Shown here in pieces: positions 4,228-64,000 of a stretch of DNA of 64,000 bases. Position 1 is the first letter of the stretch. The number at the start of each line of letters is the position of its first letter. The stretch lies in IMG/VR virus record IMGVR_UViG_3300016478_000063, positions 1 through 64,000 of that record; one strand, 5' to 3'. The notes under the pieces were generated by a model. It had not been told where the DNA came from. It made no database searches and was given only the letters and a program-made list of their open reading frames with translations. The position numbers were made by a program, and so were the translations under genes. This DNA is from a virus (taxonomy: Duplodnaviria > Caudoviricetes).

Positions 4228-4830
4228 TTGAAGACAGATATACATGTAGAATTTGATTTACATCTTCTTAATGAATTGTTTTATGTAAATCAAAACAGCA
4301 AGACAGGTTTATCTTATACCAAAGACAGGTATTCCGGAAACGGAAGATTAATGGCAAAGAAGGGTTCTGATGCTGGGGGCAGTTTACCTAGTAAATCCCA
4401 CGGATATTATGTGGTAAACGTAAATGGAAAACCGAGGTTAGTTCATAGAATAATTTATACCATGATCTATGGCCAGATTCCAAAAGGAGTGTTTGTAGAT
4501 CATATAAATGGTAACAGGACAGATAACACCTTATCTAACCTAAGGCTTGTAGATAGAAAAACAAACCAAAGAAACAGAAAGATGTCTTCAAATAACACAA
4601 CTGGTTTTGTTGGGGTATCTAGAGTTAATAGGAAGTCTTCCCCGTATTACTGTGCTCAGTGGACAAATGAGTACGGAGATGTTGAAACGAAAGTATTTAC
4701 AATTACGAAATACGGAGAGGATGAGGCACTTAGGCTTGCCATTGAGTTCCGTAAGTCAAAAATTATGGAAATGAACATTTTAGGCGAAAATTATACCGAG
4801 CGCCATTTCTTAGGAGAAATTCAAAATTAA
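4228..4830 (+). CDS. HNH homing endonuclease with AP2-like C-terminus
   Basis: LVHRIIY...VDHINGNRTDNTLSNLR HNH motif; NNTTGFVGV and KYGEDEALRLAIEFR AP2-like motifs. Confidence 0.9.
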   Translation: MKTDIHVEFDLHLLNELFYVNQNSKTGLSYTKDRYSGNGRLMAKKGSDAGGSLPSKSHGYYVVNVNGKPRLVHRIIYTMIYGQIPKGVFVDHINGNRTDNTLSNLRLVDRKTNQRNRKMSSNNTTGFVGVSRVNRKSSPYYCAQWTNEYGDVETKVFTITKYGEDEALRLAIEFRKSKIMEMNILGENYTERHFLGEIQN

Positions 4831-4852
4831 ATCTAAATATCTAGAAGCCTTC

Positions 4853-5239
4853 ATGAAAATGACGGAGGTTTTTGCGGAGACTTCAGAGGCTCAGAGATTG
4901 AAAGTTGGTGCCTGTTTGATCAAAAATGGGAATCCAATCGCATTTGGTGTAAATGGTACTATCCCAGGATGGGAAACAAACAAATGTGAAGATGAACACG
5001 GAAACACCAAATCTGATGTTGTCCTTCATGCAGAAATCCAAGCTTTAAACAAGCTCAGGAAGATTAATGAGTCGTCAGTTGGTGCAACATTACTTGTGAC
5101 ACATTCGTGCTGTTTGAGATGTGCTCATGAAGTGGTGGATTCTGGTATCACTTCCGTATATTATAGACATGACTACCGCTGTTCAGAAGGGATTGAGCAT
5201 CTAAAGAAGAGTGGTGTGAAAGTGTATAAACTGGATTAG
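4853..5239 (+). CDS. dcd: dCMP deaminase
   Basis: HAEIQAL and SCCLRC zinc motifs, KVGACLIK, FGVNG; true start may lie upstream (see findings). Confidence 0.88.
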   Translation: MKMTEVFAETSEAQRLKVGACLIKNGNPIAFGVNGTIPGWETNKCEDEHGNTKSDVVLHAEIQALNKLRKINESSVGATLLVTHSCCLRCAHEVVDSGITSVYYRHDYRCSEGIEHLKKSGVKVYKLD

Positions 5240-5309
5240 TTTACAAAATGCAAGAAACAGTCACTATTAGTGAGTCATTTAAGTAAAAGATAAACTGTAA
5301 GGGGGTGAA

Positions 5310-6413
5310 ATGATTTTTCCAACACTATACGGTAAAGATAGTTCAGGTGGATTGAAGCTTTGGGAGGTATTTACACAAAACGATGTAATTGTTGTACGCC
5401 ACGGAAAACTTGGTGGTAAAATTCAAGAAAAACGGACAACTGCTATTCCTATGAATGTTGGACGTAGTAATGCCACTACAGCATCAGAGCAAGCTGACAC
5501 AGAAGCTCTTGCCAAGTGGACAAAACAGAAAAAGAAAGGTTACTTTGAAGATAAAGAGGAGGCTCTTGGTTTTGTAACACGTACACCAATGAAGGCTCAA
5601 AACTTTAACGACTATGCTCACAAAGTGAAGTATCCTTGTTACATCCAACCTAAACTCAATGGTCAACGTATGATGATTGATTCAGAGGGTAATTGCCAGA
5701 GTAAGCAAGGTGAGAGTATTAAGCTTCCTGAACACTGGAAGGAAGATATTAAGAAACTTGTTGCAAGTGGTGTGATGAAAGATGGTATTGATGGTGAAAT
5801 CTTCGCAGGTCATGTAAAACAAGGCGGTCTAAGTCTACAACAGATTATCAGTGCTTTCCGTAAACCAAATGAGAACACTCATCGTCTTTTCTTTGCTATG
5901 TACGACACTTGTAGTGATAGTATACAAGAAGAACGATTTGCTGATATGCAAAACATTCAGAGGCTGGAACTTGCAAGTGTTGTGGCTGTGCCTACTATAT
6001 TAGTCTATAATGAATGTGAAGCTGATATTTGGTATACTAAGTGGCTTGAGCAAGGTGCTGAAGGCATGGTCTACCGCAACCTTACTGGTAAATATGACTA
6101 TGGTAAGCGTAGTTACAACCTAATTAAACGTAAACCTCGTCTTGATGCTGAAGCTAAAGTAATAGATTGTATACCGGACAAGAACAACGCAGGTCTACTG
6201 TCTTGTGTACTACAAAACGGTGTTCACTTTAAGTGTCTCATGCGTGTTGATAGTCACCCTGATATTGATTACCGCAAGTTTGACAACGCAAATACACTTG
6301 TAGGTACGTTCATCACGTTTGAATATGAAGAGCTTAGTGATGATGGTGTTCCAACCAAGCCTGTAGGTGTAGGATTGCGTAAAATGAACTCAAACTGGGA
6401 ACCACTAGAATAG
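5310..6413 (+). CDS. lig: ATP-dependent DNA ligase
   Basis: Motif I QPKLNGQR, DGEI, GAEGMVYR, LIKRK; OB-fold tail FEYEELSDDGVP. Confidence 0.9.
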   Translation: MIFPTLYGKDSSGGLKLWEVFTQNDVIVVRHGKLGGKIQEKRTTAIPMNVGRSNATTASEQADTEALAKWTKQKKKGYFEDKEEALGFVTRTPMKAQNFNDYAHKVKYPCYIQPKLNGQRMMIDSEGNCQSKQGESIKLPEHWKEDIKKLVASGVMKDGIDGEIFAGHVKQGGLSLQQIISAFRKPNENTHRLFFAMYDTCSDSIQEERFADMQNIQRLELASVVAVPTILVYNECEADIWYTKWLEQGAEGMVYRNLTGKYDYGKRSYNLIKRKPRLDAEAKVIDCIPDKNNAGLLSCVLQNGVHFKCLMRVDSHPDIDYRKFDNANTLVGTFITFEYEELSDDGVPTKPVGVGLRKMNSNWEPLE

Positions 6414-6421
6414 GAGGAGTC

Positions 6422-6838
6422 ATGACAGCAAATCCCACTCTCGTTAAACTGCGAGGAATTGACGAAGAATCTGTAAGACAAATCAATCTTTTACATGAGA
6501 AGCTGGATAAACTTATGTCTCGTGCAAATCTTGGTGTATACAGTCAATCCGTTTATGACGAAATTGAGAAAATAGAAGAACAGATTCAATTTCTCTGGAA
6601 ATTTGGGATTGATAAGTCCATGCACAAGCACAAACATTTATACAAATTTCGTTGTCATTGGATTGGGAAGAAATTCCAATGTAAAACAACAGGAGAGATA
6701 TTCACAATTCCAGAAAATGTTAAAGAACGTGATTTCTTTCGCGTGGGTGAAGGGTTTGTTGATACAGGAGTTCTTGACGGATACTCACGATTCTCTAACG
6801 TAATAGAAATTAGCAATGGAAACATTGCCCTTGATTGA
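6422..6838 (+). CDS. Hypothetical protein
   Basis: AGGAGG RBS, operon packing. Confidence 0.8.
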   Translation: MTANPTLVKLRGIDEESVRQINLLHEKLDKLMSRANLGVYSQSVYDEIEKIEEQIQFLWKFGIDKSMHKHKHLYKFRCHWIGKKFQCKTTGEIFTIPENVKERDFFRVGEGFVDTGVLDGYSRFSNVIEISNGNIALD

Positions 6839-20733: not shown

Positions 20734-20809
20734 TGGCAGCCCCGCCGTGACTCAAACACGGAACTCAAGCTTAGAAGGCAAGCGGTATATTCAGTTTACC
20801 TACAGGGCC
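20734..20809 (-). tRNA. tRNA-Arg(UCU), atypical
   Basis: 76 nt, GGCCCTG/CGGGGCT acceptor, GGTA/TACC D-stem, CT-TCT-AA loop, CCGTG/CACGG T-stem, encoded CCA; two U-U mismatches in the anticodon stem and TTT instead of TTC in the T-loop. Confidence 0.75.
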
Positions 20810-58736: not shown

Positions 58737-59489
58737 TTACTCTTGATCGTAGTGTGGTTTAACTTCATAATTAAGGATGGAGTTATATGTAGTTTCTTTT
58801 AAATATGGCTTGTATTCGAAAGCAATGAGTTTGATCTTGTCCTCAACAAACATTTTAACTGCCATCCACGCATCATCGGGGTTACTATAGACCCCGAGAT
58901 AGGTATTCTTACCCCTAATAGAAGAAACAGCTTGAAACGATCCACCGGGAAGTAATGACACACCTCTTGGGTATTTTGAGTTTGATACTCTCTTCTTCCT
59001 TAGAATAACATTTAACTCTTTTGGGAGGTAGCAGCAAGTTTGCGGGGAATATAGTTTACCGTTCCCTAATAAATCCTTGTCAAGCTCCCAACCCTCTATA
59101 AAATTTTCGGAGTGCCATTTAGCAAAATTCTGAAAGTTATGCCACTCTTGACAAACAATTACATTTTCATAAGACTTCTGTTTATTTTTACCATAACACC
59201 TGTTCATCATTGCAGACCAAGCGTTATAACACTGTGTGATTTTACCACCTGAAACAGAAGAACTGTGCGGCCCCTGTCCAATAAAGCCTACGCCGAAAAC
59301 CGAGGGGAAGTTAGGATTCTTAACAGACCCTAATTTAAAATCAGATGCCCGTGTCCTAACTTTCGTACCATCTTCAAACGTAACCTCAACGTCTAAAGCC
59401 CCTGTATAGAGAGATACGGTACATGTTCCTGTACTGGTAGTAACAGTATCCCCAACAAAAACAGACTGTTTCGGGCCTTTCTTATTCAA
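58737..59489 (-). CDS. Free-standing HNH-type homing endonuclease in the baseplate operon
   Basis: VCQEWHNFQNFAKW...ELDKDLL...YSPQTCCYLP; TTG start after AGGAGA. Confidence 0.88.
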   Translation of the reverse strand: MNKKGPKQSVFVGDTVTTSTGTCTVSLYTGALDVEVTFEDGTKVRTRASDFKLGSVKNPNFPSVFGVGFIGQGPHSSSVSGGKITQCYNAWSAMMNRCYGKNKQKSYENVIVCQEWHNFQNFAKWHSENFIEGWELDKDLLGNGKLYSPQTCCYLPKELNVILRKKRVSNSKYPRGVSLLPGGSFQAVSSIRGKNTYLGVYSNPDDAWMAVKMFVEDKIKLIAFEYKPYLKETTYNSILNYEVKPHYDQE

Positions 59490-59520
59490 AAGATTTCTCC
59501 TTCTGCAAATGTGAGGACTA

Positions 59521-59549
59521 ATTATACAGGTTTTAATATAAGAAGTCAA
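59521..59549 (-). promoter_or_regulatory. Near-consensus sigma70 promoter for the HNH
   Basis: TTGACT-17-TATAAT; -35 uses the TGA stop of the upstream structural gene. Confidence 0.75.
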
Positions 59550-59888: not shown

Positions 59889-60716
59889 TTAATTCGTTCC
59901 GAACTTATCAGCGTCTGTTGGTAGCTGATCTGCCGGGGTACTTGGAGCAGTGGAATCCCCTGCGGCTTGAGCAGCTTCGCAATTCTTTGGGGTGCTATTA
60001 GCGTTAGTCTTTTTCTTTGTTGGTTCTACTTTCTTTTTAACAGCATCCGCCACATCTTTAGGAATTTCTGTTTTCTCTAAAAGAGCAAATGTAACTTGTT
60101 CTAAAGTAAGATTAAGAAAAAGAGCATCCCCTGTGTCGGGATTCTCATCTATTCTAAAACTTGTAATAACAAGGTCAGAAATAATATCCCTGATGTTTGT
60201 TCCGTCAAACTCATAAAGCTCTACAAGCTGAATATGACTCTCTGATCTATCTGTTTTGGGGTTGTACTTTAACCCCTTAAGGACGCCTTTCAGAATATCC
60301 TTAACAACTACCTCATTAGATAAGTCTGTACGCTGATTACCAAAAAACTCAACCTTTGGTTTTGACGTACCTAAAAACTGTCCAATGGTGGCAGGGAGAT
60401 ACTGTAACAACTTACTTCCTTGTAAGTTGATTGAGATTGGCTCTGGTTGTTCCTGCGCATTCAATGGACGTTGCTGATTTTCATCTAAAAGCTGCCAAGG
60501 GATGTGAGACAAATCTGTTCCGCTTACTACACCAGATATAGTGAATATAGGATTCTCTTTGATAAAGTGGTCTGTAATAGAAGCCCCTGCGTCTACAGGG
60601 TGCTTCGTAACTTGTCCACGATAATCTTGAGAATAGCTTGTAACAGCATCAAGATATATGTATCCACTTGGTTCTTCTGGGTTGTCCAAACTCCCCCACT
60701 TAATCGCTAATGACAT
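59889..60716 (-). CDS. Distal tail / baseplate hub-associated protein
   Basis: VTKHPVDAGASITDH motif; immediately after tape measure. Confidence 0.75.
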   Translation of the reverse strand: MSLAIKWGSLDNPEEPSGYIYLDAVTSYSQDYRGQVTKHPVDAGASITDHFIKENPIFTISGVVSGTDLSHIPWQLLDENQQRPLNAQEQPEPISINLQGSKLLQYLPATIGQFLGTSKPKVEFFGNQRTDLSNEVVVKDILKGVLKGLKYNPKTDRSESHIQLVELYEFDGTNIRDIISDLVITSFRIDENPDTGDALFLNLTLEQVTFALLEKTEIPKDVADAVKKKVEPTKKKTNANSTPKNCEAAQAAGDSTAPSTPADQLPTDADKFGTN

Positions 60717-61807
60717 TATTGTCCTCCAGAATATCCGTAAGATGTGAGGGTTTGCTGTAGTTTGTCATCCAGCATTTTTACAAAGCTGTTAGCAACATCC
60801 TCTGTCTTCTCTGCTGTAATGTTAGCGTCAAGTTTAACTTCAACCTTCATAACACCAGGAAGTTTTGTACCATAAGCATCCATGTTCCGCTGCATCATAG
60901 ACTCCTGAGCCATGTTTTTAGCATTCTCATCGTACATCTCAGGTGTCCAGCCATACATCCCGCTGGAAGGATTATTAAGAGCATTACGCTTCTTTTGTTC
61001 TTGATCAAAAGGTTTTAACCCGGTACTAGCTGTATTCGCTAAAGGATCATAACCCAAGCCTCTGCCGATCATTCCAGCAGGACCGTTACGAATACCAATA
61101 GAAAGGGCTTGCTTTAACCCTTCGCCCGCACCAGAAAAATCCCCACTGGCCAGTTTGTTTATAGACTGTAAGGTGATCAGAAGGGAGGTTTGTATCTCTT
61201 TGAGTGTATTCAGTACAGTCTGGAGTGCTCCTGATTCTTTGAAAAGATCGAAAAGCATCTTCCATCCTTCATAGGATTTGACCCTAAGCTCTCCAACTTC
61301 TTTAAGAATATCTCTGATGTTAAACATCATTTGCATGATTGTTTCACCAGTCTCTCCTTGACCAAACAACCACTTCTGAAAGTTGCTATCCCTCCCATCA
61401 AACATACGTCCAATAGATTGAGGTAAAAGAACCATCTGCCTAAAGAAGTAAGTTCCTTTATCAAACATCTCTCCGAGATTAGGCATTATTCTATCCATTT
61501 CTCGCATAGCGTCAGTTGCTGTACGCCACAAACGAGCAAAGCCTGTTTCACCACCAGCTTTAGAAAAGCTCTCTAACATCTGAGTTTGCATATTCTGTGA
61601 ACGGGCTTGTTCCGCGATAGATGATTTCTTCATAACATCAATCTTGGGCGCTGCGCGTTCACTTAGGATTCTTGCAACAATAGGGAGAATTTTAGCTGAT
61701 TCAATGTTCCCTTTTTCAATATCCTCATAGAATTTGGCATGAGCTTCTTGTCCAACCAACCCGCTACCTGTCATTTCTGCATAGGACTCTGCGAATACGT
61801 CCATCGT
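60716..61807 (-). CDS. Tape measure protein, exon 3 (363 aa)
   Basis: Begins ACG ATG GAC right after the terminal G of intron 2; continues the TMP motif. Confidence 0.88.
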   Translation of the reverse strand, partial: TMDVFAESYAEMTGSGLVGQEAHAKFYEDIEKGNIESAKILPIVARILSERAAPKIDVMKKSSIAEQARSQNMQTQMLESFSKAGGETGFARLWRTATDAMREMDRIMPNLGEMFDKGTYFFRQMVLLPQSIGRMFDGRDSNFQKWLFGQGETGETIMQMMFNIRDILKEVGELRVKSYEGWKMLFDLFKESGALQTVLNTLKEIQTSLLITLQSINKLASGDFSGAGEGLKQALSIGIRNGPAGMIGRGLGYDPLANTASTGLKPFDQEQKKRNALNNPSSGMYGWTPEMYDENAKNMAQESMMQRNMDAYGTKLPGVMKVEVKLDANITAEKTEDVANSFVKMLDDKLQQTLTSYGYSGGQ

Positions 61808-62792
61808 CGTTTATGTTCAGGGAGGGGCGTTAATCCCTCCCCCGCTTTATTCAAGCTGCTTATGCTTTCACATAAGACCAGATCATATCACAATCCTAAA
61901 ATATAGGATTCCTACCGTTTCGCTTCACTTGAAGCTACGTCCGAAGACTGATCGTTGAACGTTACCCTTAAATGTTTAAAAGTCTTCCCAGCTTTGATAT
62001 TACTTACAGTGTGTCTATTAACACGTGGATGATTCATGCAGTCAACAATATCTGTTATCGAAAGGTTGTTCTCGATAAGTTCTAATATTTTAAGAACAAG
62101 ATCATCAGTAATTTTAGGCTTAGTTTTACTAAAATTAAAATCTTTTGAAACCTCTTGCCACGTTCTGCGAGATTTAACAGAATAAACTACAGAAAGATTT
62201 ACACCAGTTTTTCTGGATATTTCTCTGCAATTAAAACCATCAACAAGCATTTGGCAGACAGTCATTATCTCACCATTGGTATAGGTTGAAACAAAAGCAT
62301 CTTCTGCTTTTGGGAAATTTCCTGCCTCTACCCCATGAGTTGAGTTTTCTTGTGCTGTAACCCATTCTAAGTTACCAATAGAATTGTTAGTTCTATTAGA
62401 ATCTATGTGATTCACGAAAGGTTTGTTTGAGGGGTTTGGTACAAAGACCAGTGCTACAGCCCTGTGGACATATATTCCACGAAGCTTAGAACCATCCCAA
62501 ACTTTACAACGAAAATAACCGTCTTTATCTTTAAAAGGTTTATAAATACTTTTAGTAAAGCTACTACGAATCTGCCCAAGCTCATTCACTTCTGCAAATT
62601 CATAATTTGGAACAACATAAAACATTTCGACCTCCTTGGTTAAAGAAGATCGGGTCTTCGCTGCGGATTACCCAATCTTGATTTCTTAAATCGCAAGTGT
62701 ACCACACTTTTAAGAAAATGCAAGCTCTAAGGGCTTTCCCGCAATTAGATAGGTTTGCTATCACCATTACTGGCGAAAGGGGCTACAAATTA
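61808..62792 (-). ncRNA. Group I intron 2 (985 nt, IA2-like, contains HNH ORF)
   Basis: 5' exon ends in U with GGGU/GCCC P1; P4 UGCGG/CCGCA; P7 GAUCA/UGAUC; GAAA-capped P9; ends in G. Confidence 0.9.
61912..62625 (-). CDS. Intron-encoded NUMOD4/HNH homing endonuclease
   Basis: VHRAVALVF...VNHIDSNRTNN..NLEWVT..EN; AAGGAGG RBS; its 3' end runs through the ribozyme P7 region. Confidence 0.92.
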   Translation of the reverse strand: MFYVVPNYEFAEVNELGQIRSSFTKSIYKPFKDKDGYFRCKVWDGSKLRGIYVHRAVALVFVPNPSNKPFVNHIDSNRTNNSIGNLEWVTAQENSTHGVEAGNFPKAEDAFVSTYTNGEIMTVCQMLVDGFNCREISRKTGVNLSVVYSVKSRRTWQEVSKDFNFSKTKPKITDDLVLKILELIENNLSITDIVDCMNHPRVNRHTVSNIKAGKTFKHLRVTFNDQSSDVASSEAKR

Positions 62793-62849
62793 ACCCGGCA
62801 TTGATTCGGCCATCTGCCGCCGCACTTCCTCCATACTAAGGACACCTTT
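62793..62849 (-). CDS. Tape measure protein, exon 2 (57-nt micro-exon, KGVLSMEEVRRQMAESMPG)
   Basis: Restores the TMP motif QMxxKGxxxxEExxxQxxExxPG in frame with both flanking exons. Confidence 0.9.
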
Positions 62850-63144
62850 CGTTTATGTTCAAGGGTGGTCGTTAATCACCCCCCGCTTTATTCAAGCTGC
62901 TACATGTTTCCATGCAGACCAGACCATATCTTCACTTAAAATCAGTGCCTACCGTTTCGCTTCACTTGAAGCTACTCTACTCCATTCAGATAAATCTGTG
63001 TTTCGATGGTCGTTGGGGGCGAGGCGTTTTATGCCTATCCCTGCTGATTGCCCAATTCTTCCGATTGTTACTGCCTTTAGGCTAGTACGAAAGACTCTAA
63101 GGGGTTTCCAGCATATTGTAGGTTTTAGTTGAGCTGTTATGTTA
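62850..63144 (-). ncRNA. Group I intron 1 (295 nt, IA2-like, no ORF)
   Basis: P1 UUGGGU/GCUCAA with U.G at the splice site; P4 UGCUG/CAGCA; P7 GACCA/UGGUC; GAAA P9; ends in G. Confidence 0.9.
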
Positions 63145-63957
63145 ACCCAACATCTGCGAGAGGGCGTTTTGTACTAACTTACGTCTTGCTGGAGTTACAC
63201 CCATTGCAGTTTGGTACTCAGAGAAGCCTTTAAAAATATCTTGACTCTGCTCTACACCAAGACCCGCACCCAGTGAGTTTGAAAGGAATTGGTTGTAATC
63301 TGGCAAGGCTTCCATGTAGTTGAAACCAACGTCATTAGCCAAACCAAACAACCACTTATTAGCATCAACACCTTGCTGCGTACTGTACCCCTTAGCTGCT
63401 AACACAGCTTGAGTTGTAAGTTGTCCAGAGATTAGTTCTTGGTTTGCTGTGTTCAATGAACCAAGACCATAAACACCACCAACAAAAGGAAGGCTTGCTA
63501 CACCATAACGAGCAAGAGCACCGCCAGCACCGCCAGCATGTAGGAAATTAGCTCTTGAAAAAGAAGAATCACTTCTTGTTTGTTTTGTTGTAGCCGAGCC
63601 TACTGCTTGCTTCACTGGTGCCATTCGGGGTGTCAAGCTGACTTGCTTATTAGCTTGGTTAATTGCTTGCCTGATTGCGGAAGAGACTTGACCGGCGAGA
63701 TTCTGCTTATTTACAACAAAATTATCAACAGGGAACCTAACTCTACGACTTACTTCATTAAACGCTCTCTGAACATCGAATTGAAGTCTGTTAGTGTTGA
63801 ATGTGAAGTTTATGTTTAACTTCCCACTCTTTGCCATCCTTTTCTGGAAGTCCATTAGGCGTTTTTCAATAGACTTCAGATAGGTATCAACTTGTTTAAT
63901 CTGACCTTTATCTACTCGCAGGGCAACGCGTGCGAAATAGCTGGAAATAGCTACCAT
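63145..63957 (-). CDS. Tape measure protein, exon 1 (271 aa); spliced product ~653 aa
   Basis: Ends ...VQNALSQMLG; Ala/Gly-rich helical sequence; position upstream of distal tail genes. Confidence 0.88.
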
Positions 63958-63961
63958 TCAA

Positions 63962-64000
63962 CTATCCTTTATTGTTTGCACTCTTTTGTGCTTGTTTGGA
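63962..64000 (-). CDS. 3' end of the upstream gene (possibly tail assembly chaperone), partial
   Basis: ...SKQAQKSANNKG* just before the TMP start; function from position only. Confidence 0.4.
   Translation of the reverse strand, partial: SKQAQKSANNKG

Follow-up and report, generated by a model that had tools for sequence, protein, structure and literature searches.

In phage Twort the tail tube gene orf142 contains three introns, and two of them (I2 and I3) are similar group IA2 introns that lie around a skippable exon of 23 nt (Landthaler & Shub 1999, PMC22036; PMC10136302, PMC11878797). For prophages of the Bacillus cereus group, Tourasse & Kolsto (2008, PMC2504315) report group I introns at three sites of the tape measure protein (TMP) gene, named TMP-IVS1, TMP-IVS2 and TMP-IVS3; several strains carry two such introns in one gene, and two related IA2 introns of 80% identity occupy neighbouring sites with re-adapted P1 helices. 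In Coxiella burnetii, as far as the work of Hicks et al. (2011) is summarized in PMC10136302, the 23S rRNA introns Cbu.L1917 and Cbu.L1951 flank an exon of 34 nt, the skipping of which was observed. In Cluster J mycobacteriophages introns are known in capsid and minor tail genes. Here we describe a related arrangement in a virus of the Caudoviricetes. The window, i.e. the whole stretch of DNA that was analysed, comprises positions 1 to 64,000 (64,000 nt) of IMG/VR record IMGVR_UViG_3300016478_000063, and close to its end two intervening sequences (IVS1 and IVS2) lie on either side of a 57-nt micro-exon in a TMP gene. Our reading, to which we assign a probability of roughly 0.9, is that this is one TMP gene with two group I introns, which would be spliced in phase 0 to encode a TMP of 653 amino acids.

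A sequence-only reading of this DNA had proposed that the two open reading frames (ORFs) of 271 and 362 amino acids found here are parts of one TMP, and that excision of both inserts yields an in-frame protein of about 653 residues. Both proposals are borne out. When 62850-63144 and 61808-62792 are excised, the remaining 813, 57 and 1092 nt form one open frame of 653 codons that no stop interrupts, and the spliced TMP reads ..ALSQMLG/KGVLSMEEVRRQMAESMPG/TMDVFAE.. at the joints (slashes). Longer relatives of the 362-aa piece were searched for, and the product was then aligned to its relatives with MAFFT. Seven uninterrupted relatives (P0001-P0007, 638-1000 aa, every one with PF20155) align from end to end, exon 1 with their N-terminal and exon 3 with their C-terminal halves. 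From ..TPARRKLVQNALSQMLG through KGVLSMEEVRRQMAESMPG to TMDVFA the product equals P0001 and P0002 letter for letter, with zero gaps at the joints. Alignment to intron-less TMPs had been suggested as a check by the sequence-only reading; the relatives keep the 19-residue segment of the micro-exon, which shows no difference in P0001 or P0002 and is conserved throughout the nine relatives aligned.

Taken by themselves, the two ORFs are poorly recognizable. That of exon 1 matches Pfam TMP_3 with 20.2 bits, below the cut-off of 41 bits because the motif is cut, and has a weak match to phrog_20644, a TMP family; both matches end at the final residue of the 271-aa ORF. For the 362-aa ORF (60716..61804) profile searches gave no family match of its own. 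At the nucleotide level, a megablast search with the 3.4-kb region against GenBank phages had zero matches, and tblastn against GenBank phages found two distant Pseudomonas phage TMPs and nothing else.

As a positional criterion, a TMP gene was expected after the sheath, tube and chaperone genes and before the distal tail and baseplate genes. A sheath gene lies upstream of the TMP gene of the window and a Dit-like tail gene directly downstream, and Pseudomonas phages M1 and Bitten share this order of tail genes. Over the same stretch, MAFFT also aligns the TMPs annotated in Bitten and vB_PsaM_M1, which occupy the equivalent position in the tail module. Judged from its sequence, the minus-strand gene at 63957..60716 is one tape-measure gene, and the phage is an uncultured freshwater myophage with a genome of 88.8 kb. 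A gene of vB_PsaM_M1 (OP714164.2, L001:2149-4227) that aligns with the TMPs and occupies the TMP slot is annotated as 'nucleotide kinase', a label that looks like a mis-annotation.

Both inserts have the anatomy of group I introns (Table 1). The exon U (T in the DNA) before each of them, the TAA at which each begins and the end ..GAACATAAACG (AUAAACG) that they share had been named in the sequence-only reading and are read directly in the sequence. P1 of both introns ends in a U.G pair, the U of which is, for IVS1, the last letter of exon 1, and the terminal G is also present in 14 of the 14 related introns examined. P1, P3, P4, P5, P5a/b, P7, P7.1, P7.2, P8, P9 (closed by GAAA), P9.1 and P9.2 can be written in both introns, and an unconstrained centroid fold of IVS1 recovers the local helices P4-P6, P7.1, P7.2, P8, P9, P9.1 and P9.2. 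The proposed perfect 28-bp core is exact, and the pairings of P7 (GACCA/UGGUC versus GAUCA/UGAUC), P4 (UGCUGG/UCAGCA versus UGCGGG/UCCGCA) and P9 are all Watson-Crick or wobble.

Table 1. Features of the interrupted tape-measure gene and of the related sheath-gene intron (positions in the window unless stated otherwise; IGS, internal guide sequence)
Feature	Position	Strand	Remarks
TMP exon 1	63145..63957	-	271 codons, ends ..CAG ATG TTG GGT; ORF itself 63142..63957
IVS1	62850..63144	-	295 nt, ORF-less; site A, G271/K272, phase 0; in-frame TAA at start, G at end
IGS of IVS1 (GCUCAAC)	63128..63134	-	pairs with GUUGGGU (63151-63145), 7-bp P1
28-nt segment, IVS1 copy	62948..62975	-	P7.2 hairpin, J7.2/3, P3 3' strand
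Micro-exon	62793..62849	-	57 nt, 19 codons, encodes KGVLSMEEVRRQMAESMPG; most conserved TMP stretch
IVS2	61808..62792	-	985 nt; site D, G290/T291, phase 0; in-frame TAA at start, G at end
Predicted HNH homing endonuclease ORF	61912..62625	-	237 aa, Shine-Dalgarno AAGGAGG upstream
28-nt segment, IVS2 copy	61911..61938	-	exactly equal to the IVS1 copy; contains the stop codon of the HNH ORF
TMP exon 3	60716..61807	-	363 codons and stop, starts ACG ATG GAC (TMDVFAE..); ORF itself 60716..61804, 362 aa
Third group I intron, same family	G000:C1:67558-68642 (L003 1777..693), outside the window	-	splits tail sheath gene after ..GAPID

The covariance model RF00028 (Intron_gpI) of Rfam has a curated gathering cut-off of 50 bits. 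At this threshold no intron was called in the whole window, and a permissive search was needed. The Rfam group I search, which the sequence-only reading had recommended, then matched IVS1 with an E-value of 3e-11 and the 5' half of IVS2 with 2e-5, well beyond what chance would give. The cut-off is exceeded by homologous introns at the same sites in relatives, which reach 56-89 bits. In the classification of Michel & Westhof, subgroup IA is marked by two additional hairpins, P7.1 and P7.2, which separate the 5' strand of P7 from the 3' strand of P3. Here IVS1 has CAGA..UCUG and GCUUC..GAAGC, and IVS2 has GUC(UUCG)GAC and GCUUC..GAAGC. By our own reading of these hairpins, not by a classifier, both introns belong to IA2 rather than to IA1 or IA3.

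For the analysis of covariation, introns from related TMP loci were combined with the sheath intron of the same genome, and the 3' halves were anchored at J6/7. The formal pair count covered P7, P9, P9.1 and P9.2 (23 pairs in 7 sequences), and P7.1, P7.2 and P8, the length or register of which varies between subfamilies, were compared by eye. Standard pairs were found in 98.6% of the cells, compared with 78% in shuffled alignments and 34-48% with slid partners. Both sides had changed in 15 of the 23 pairs, and none of 500 shuffles reached the observed covariation. As read from the alignments, P3 occurs as CCUAUC/GGUAGG, UCUCUU/AGGAGA, CUCCUU/GGGGAG and CUUAUU/AAUAAG, and the fourth pair of P4 as U-A, G-C or C-G. 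The compensatory changes that had been noticed between the two introns extend to their homologues, among which P3 and P4 covary in addition to P7 and P9.

Natural empty sites fix the exact boundaries of IVS1 and IVS2. Logan contigs of the runs X2, X3, X4 and X20 were compared over 60500-64000. DNA contigs from the two independent metagenomes X2 (biochar) and X3 (estuary) are about 98% identical through exon 3, IVS2 and the micro-exon and, after 62849, resume only at 63151; the six letters in between are a synonymous recoding of Leu-Gly. Therefore exactly 62850-63144, i.e. IVS1, is absent from them. P0009 (97% identity to exon 1) continues past site A and ends in ..ESMPG at site D, and it therefore represents an IVS2-only allele as well. 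A relative in X20, a compost metatranscriptome, is exactly without 61808-62792, with one synonymous change at the joint, and is also without IVS1. It is divergent, with 1191 unlike letters in exon 3 and conservative substitutions in the micro-exon. The joined contigs of X20 were rejected as evidence of splicing: in so divergent a relative, an intron-less gene or DNA contamination would explain them equally well. In X4 (soil, separate study, record 22) one contig extends from exon 3 across IVS2 and the micro-exon as far as 22 nt into the 3' end of IVS1, and a second spans the remaining IVS1 with one mismatch. Hence the two-intron form probably exists elsewhere, in this soil sample.

By their sequences, IVS1 and IVS2 are paralogues: they belong to one intron family but to different lineages, each specific to its site. 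In a tree of intron 3' halves the introns group by insertion site, with support of 0.99 for the site-A clade and 0.87 for the site-D clade. The 3' half of IVS1 has 87% identity with its counterpart in the site-A intron of locus L034, 75% with that of L039 and 61% with IVS2. The description of the two as 'twin' introns, which suggests duplicates, is not supported by the 87% and 61%. On the strength of the identity matrix and the tree, a recent local duplication of IVS2 was rejected as the origin of IVS1. The shared 28-mer is the segment from P7.2 to P3', which is nearly invariant in the site-A and site-D lineages; local gene conversion is possible as its source, yet unnecessary as an explanation. 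An exact search of IMG/VR for the 28-mer found zero occurrences outside this genome.

Breaks were mapped in 59 TMP loci, and at least six insertion sites fall within TMP residues 265-291 (about 26 codons, about 78 nt). With a slash for the insertion point and a caret for insertion in phase 2, these are site E (NA/LSQ), site A (LG/KG, IVS1 of the window), site F (KGVV^S), site B (EE(V/L)^RR), site C (MA/ES) and site D (PG/T, IVS2 of the window). The introns at all of these sites have an exon U before them and G as the last letter. Occupancy differs between the loci: A+D with a 57-nt exon in the window; A+B with a 26-nt exon in L034 (OGVH01000024.1, 3918-4997), the protein of which is 93-97% identical; B+D with a 31-nt exon in L035 (Ga0209300_1000353, 4532-6659); and E+A+F+D with exons of 18, 11 and 46 nt in L039 (Ga0209075_1032181, 1117-2920). 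The four introns of L039 (1117-1411, 1430-1734, 1746-2019 and 2066 to the contig end) lie within 75 coding nt, and the boundary of its 11-nt exon can slide along a 6-nt repeat. Three separate introns of L039 score above the Rfam cut-off (88.8, 58.5 for site A, and 67.6 bits), as do two of L034 (63.2 for site A, and 56.4 bits). Many TMP loci have a single intron or none, and the more distant TMPs have none.

Of 34 clusters of truncated N-terminal TMP ORFs in the protein collection, about 33 end at these sites, and A, B, C and D account for about 16, 10, 1 and 5 of them, respectively. Because dozens of these clusters end there, the truncated-TMP arrangement is, on the evidence of the protein sequences, common in nature. 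It is largely established from the sequences compared that the motif ..NALSQMLGKGVLSMEEVRRQMAESMPGT.. is a landing pad for one IA family, with at least six site-specific lineages in about 26 codons. The truncated N-terminal TMP ORFs P0013, P0015 and P0031 belong to the M1-like clade and end in ..(S/A)QMGA, the position homologous to site A, which suggests that site A is also occupied in this more distant phage group.

The 237-aa ORF of IVS2 is a predicted I-HmuI-like HNH homing endonuclease. It matches Pfam HNH_3 with 38.4 bits (1e-9; cut-off 24.8), HTH_23 weakly and phrog_59 with 7e-46, and it aligns to PDB 1U3E (I-HmuI) with an E-value of 5e-9 over residues 12-105. The ORF begins after P6, crosses P7, P7.1 and P7.2, and stops in the 3' strand of P3. 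At another locus, L019, an intron occupies the same PG/T site. It shares 87-88% identity with IVS2 in the ribozyme parts and 71% in the HNH protein, amid TMP exons that have only 54% nucleotide identity and 36-38% protein identity. Such a contrast between intron and exons is what homing into a conserved target should leave behind, as far as sequences can tell. Elsewhere in the window (58737-59549, minus strand) a free-standing HNH ORF (phrog_953, 5e-53) lies between two baseplate genes that adjoin each other in Pseudomonas phage M1. There is zero intron signal around it, and BLASTP shows no kinship with the HNH ORF of the intron.

The window belongs to an IMG/VR record of 88,799 nt that is rated 100% complete, and a third intron of the same family lies in this record just outside the window (Table 1). 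This sheath intron scores 99.3 bits with Rfam and ends in the same GAACATAAACG as the TMP introns. In its P9.1 region it carries a homing endonuclease of 256 aa (phrog_655) that differs from the one in IVS2. With the intron removed, the sheath has 428 aa and aligns unbroken to its relatives. In the upstream flanks of L018 and L037, the sheath matches begin at residues 324-326, which correspond to the sheath-intron junction of the window phage, and the sheath site may be occupied in these phages too. The window also carries a single tRNA-Arg gene (anticodon TCT; 20734-20809, minus strand).

The splicing steps that we infer follow the established chemistry of group I introns. Each ribozyme would fold in the late transcript, where its guide would pair with the end of the exon (GUUGGGU/GCUCAAC in IVS1, GGGU/GCCC in IVS2). 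An external guanosine would attack after the exon U, and the released exon would then attack after the terminal G. In this way three exons would be joined in phase 0 to the mRNA for the 653-aa TMP, and the TAA that opens each intron would halt ribosomes on unspliced RNA. The HNH enzyme could drive homing of IVS2 into empty TMP alleles. IVS1, which is ORF-less and 57 nt away, probably spreads by co-conversion or with the help of an endonuclease acting in trans. In related phages the intron family has colonised at least six adjacent sites of the motif.

Several findings weigh against this reading. IVS1 scores 49.6 bits with RF00028, 0.4 bit below the cut-off, and IVS2 has only partial matches of 30.4 bits (5' half) and 14.8 bits (3' half), in two halves because the ORF splits its core. 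P1 of IVS2 has just 4 bp, and a search for P10 pairings in both introns gave none that was convincing. Translation of the HNH ORF could compete with folding, since the ORF overlaps P7, P7.1, P7.2 and the 3' strand of P3. Joined forms in an RNA library come from the divergent X20 relative only. The genome, finally, is a metagenome assembly rather than that of an isolate. The low scores, the short P1, the missing P10 and the restriction of joined RNA forms to that relative would all fit a situation in which one or both ribozymes are inactive, the TMP gene then being a pseudogene in a defective or dead-end genome, or in which splicing needs a protein cofactor from host or phage. We consider this improbable, since every core helix is intact in IVS1 and IVS2 and the changes relative to homologues are compensatory, which indicates continuing structural selection. 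Furthermore, the A+D arrangement is probably also present in the independent soil metagenome X4, the alleles at sites A and D are numerous, and the genome is rated complete.

Less credible still is gene fission, in which the 271-aa and 362-aa ORFs, both of which have start codons and are callable as genes, would be two separate tail proteins with just a homing-endonuclease cassette between them. The break lies inside the most conserved TMP motif, which is otherwise always contiguous, and the 19 codons in the middle, which lack a separate start codon, are nevertheless conserved letter for letter. Group I cores are present in the inserts, with a U at the end of the exon before and a G as last letter, and the ATG of the 362-aa ORF corresponds to the Met inside ..PGTMDVF.. 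of the relatives. The metagenomic source and the existence of IVS2-only variants could also point to an assembly artefact, i.e. introns of different phage variants that were stitched together so that no real genome has both. Run X1 holds 98% of the words of the stretch; it is the probable source sample and hence not independent. Independent contigs of X4, however, link exon 3, IVS2, the micro-exon and the 3' end of IVS1, a second one covering the remaining IVS1, and in the multi-intron contigs L034, L035 and L039 the micro-exons are as short as 11-31 nt, a length that k-mers must span. An artefact of this kind is therefore very hard to believe. We prefer the reading of one TMP gene with two group I introns over these explanations.

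A more far-reaching interpretation adds skipping of the exon itself. Given the 28-nt P7.2/P3' segment that the two introns have in common, a hybrid ribozyme could arise when the 5' half of IVS1 pairs with the 3' half of IVS2, and this ribozyme would skip the in-frame 57-nt exon in the manner of Twort. If this were true, exon skipping would give a second TMP form without the 19 motif residues. That the TMP motif is an intron landing pad and that a hybrid ribozyme skips the 57-nt exon is, as a joint proposition, tentative, and we regard it as rather doubtful.

The arrangement has consequences for annotation: where there is one TMP gene, standard gene callers report two truncated ones and an HNH gene. 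Dozens of truncated TMP ORFs are present in the protein collection, and an essential tail gene of uncultured phages is therefore mis-annotated as a matter of routine. Within the clade, occupancy by one ribozyme family with site-specific lineages forms a natural series of empty, single, double and quadruple states. This series could be used to study the retargeting of guide sequences, the persistence of ORF-less introns beside endonuclease-bearing neighbours, and the minimum exon size between two ribozymes, which is 11 nt in L039. For the assembly of its tail, the window phage should need three splicing events, two of them in the TMP gene and one in the sheath gene. The known principles of group I introns are unchanged by these findings.

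Twort had already been named as a parallel by the sequence-only reading, and the comparison is apt and even closer than had been claimed, given that orf142 is a tail tube gene with similar IA2 introns around its 23-nt exon. In both cases a late tail gene of a myophage carries two similar IA2 introns around a very short exon, and there are several introns per genome. The window phage differs in that the gene is the tape measure gene, the exon has 57 nt and is in frame, and one of the two introns carries an HNH gene. Moreover, splicing and exon skipping are experimental results in Twort, whereas the window phage is known from DNA sequence alone. With the B. cereus-group prophages the TMP gene is shared, as are IA1/IA2 introns at several sites and, in part, copies without a complete endonuclease gene. 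Those are temperate siphophage prophages of Firmicutes with TMPs of more than 1200 aa, and the text drawn on reports neither a micro-exon of tens of bases nor six sites per about 26 codons.

The SPO1 DNA-polymerase intron with I-HmuI (PDB 1U3E) is likewise a group I intron bearing a homing endonuclease of the HNH family. It lies in another host gene, and the similarity is low and confined to the N-terminal and HNH region. The Coxiella introns resemble ours in that two group I introns surround a short exon; in the account available through PMC10136302 the gene is a bacterial rRNA gene and the introns are of unlike subgroups (IB2 and IA3). The sequence-only reading had called a double intron in a TMP gene rare or undescribed. 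This novelty claim was overstated: two introns per TMP gene were described already in 2008 (PMC2504315), and dozens of truncated ORFs end at the sites found here. Thus the kind of element, its presence in TMP genes and micro-exons between paired introns are already known, and what is new is this phage clade, the density of its insertion sites and its natural occupancy series.

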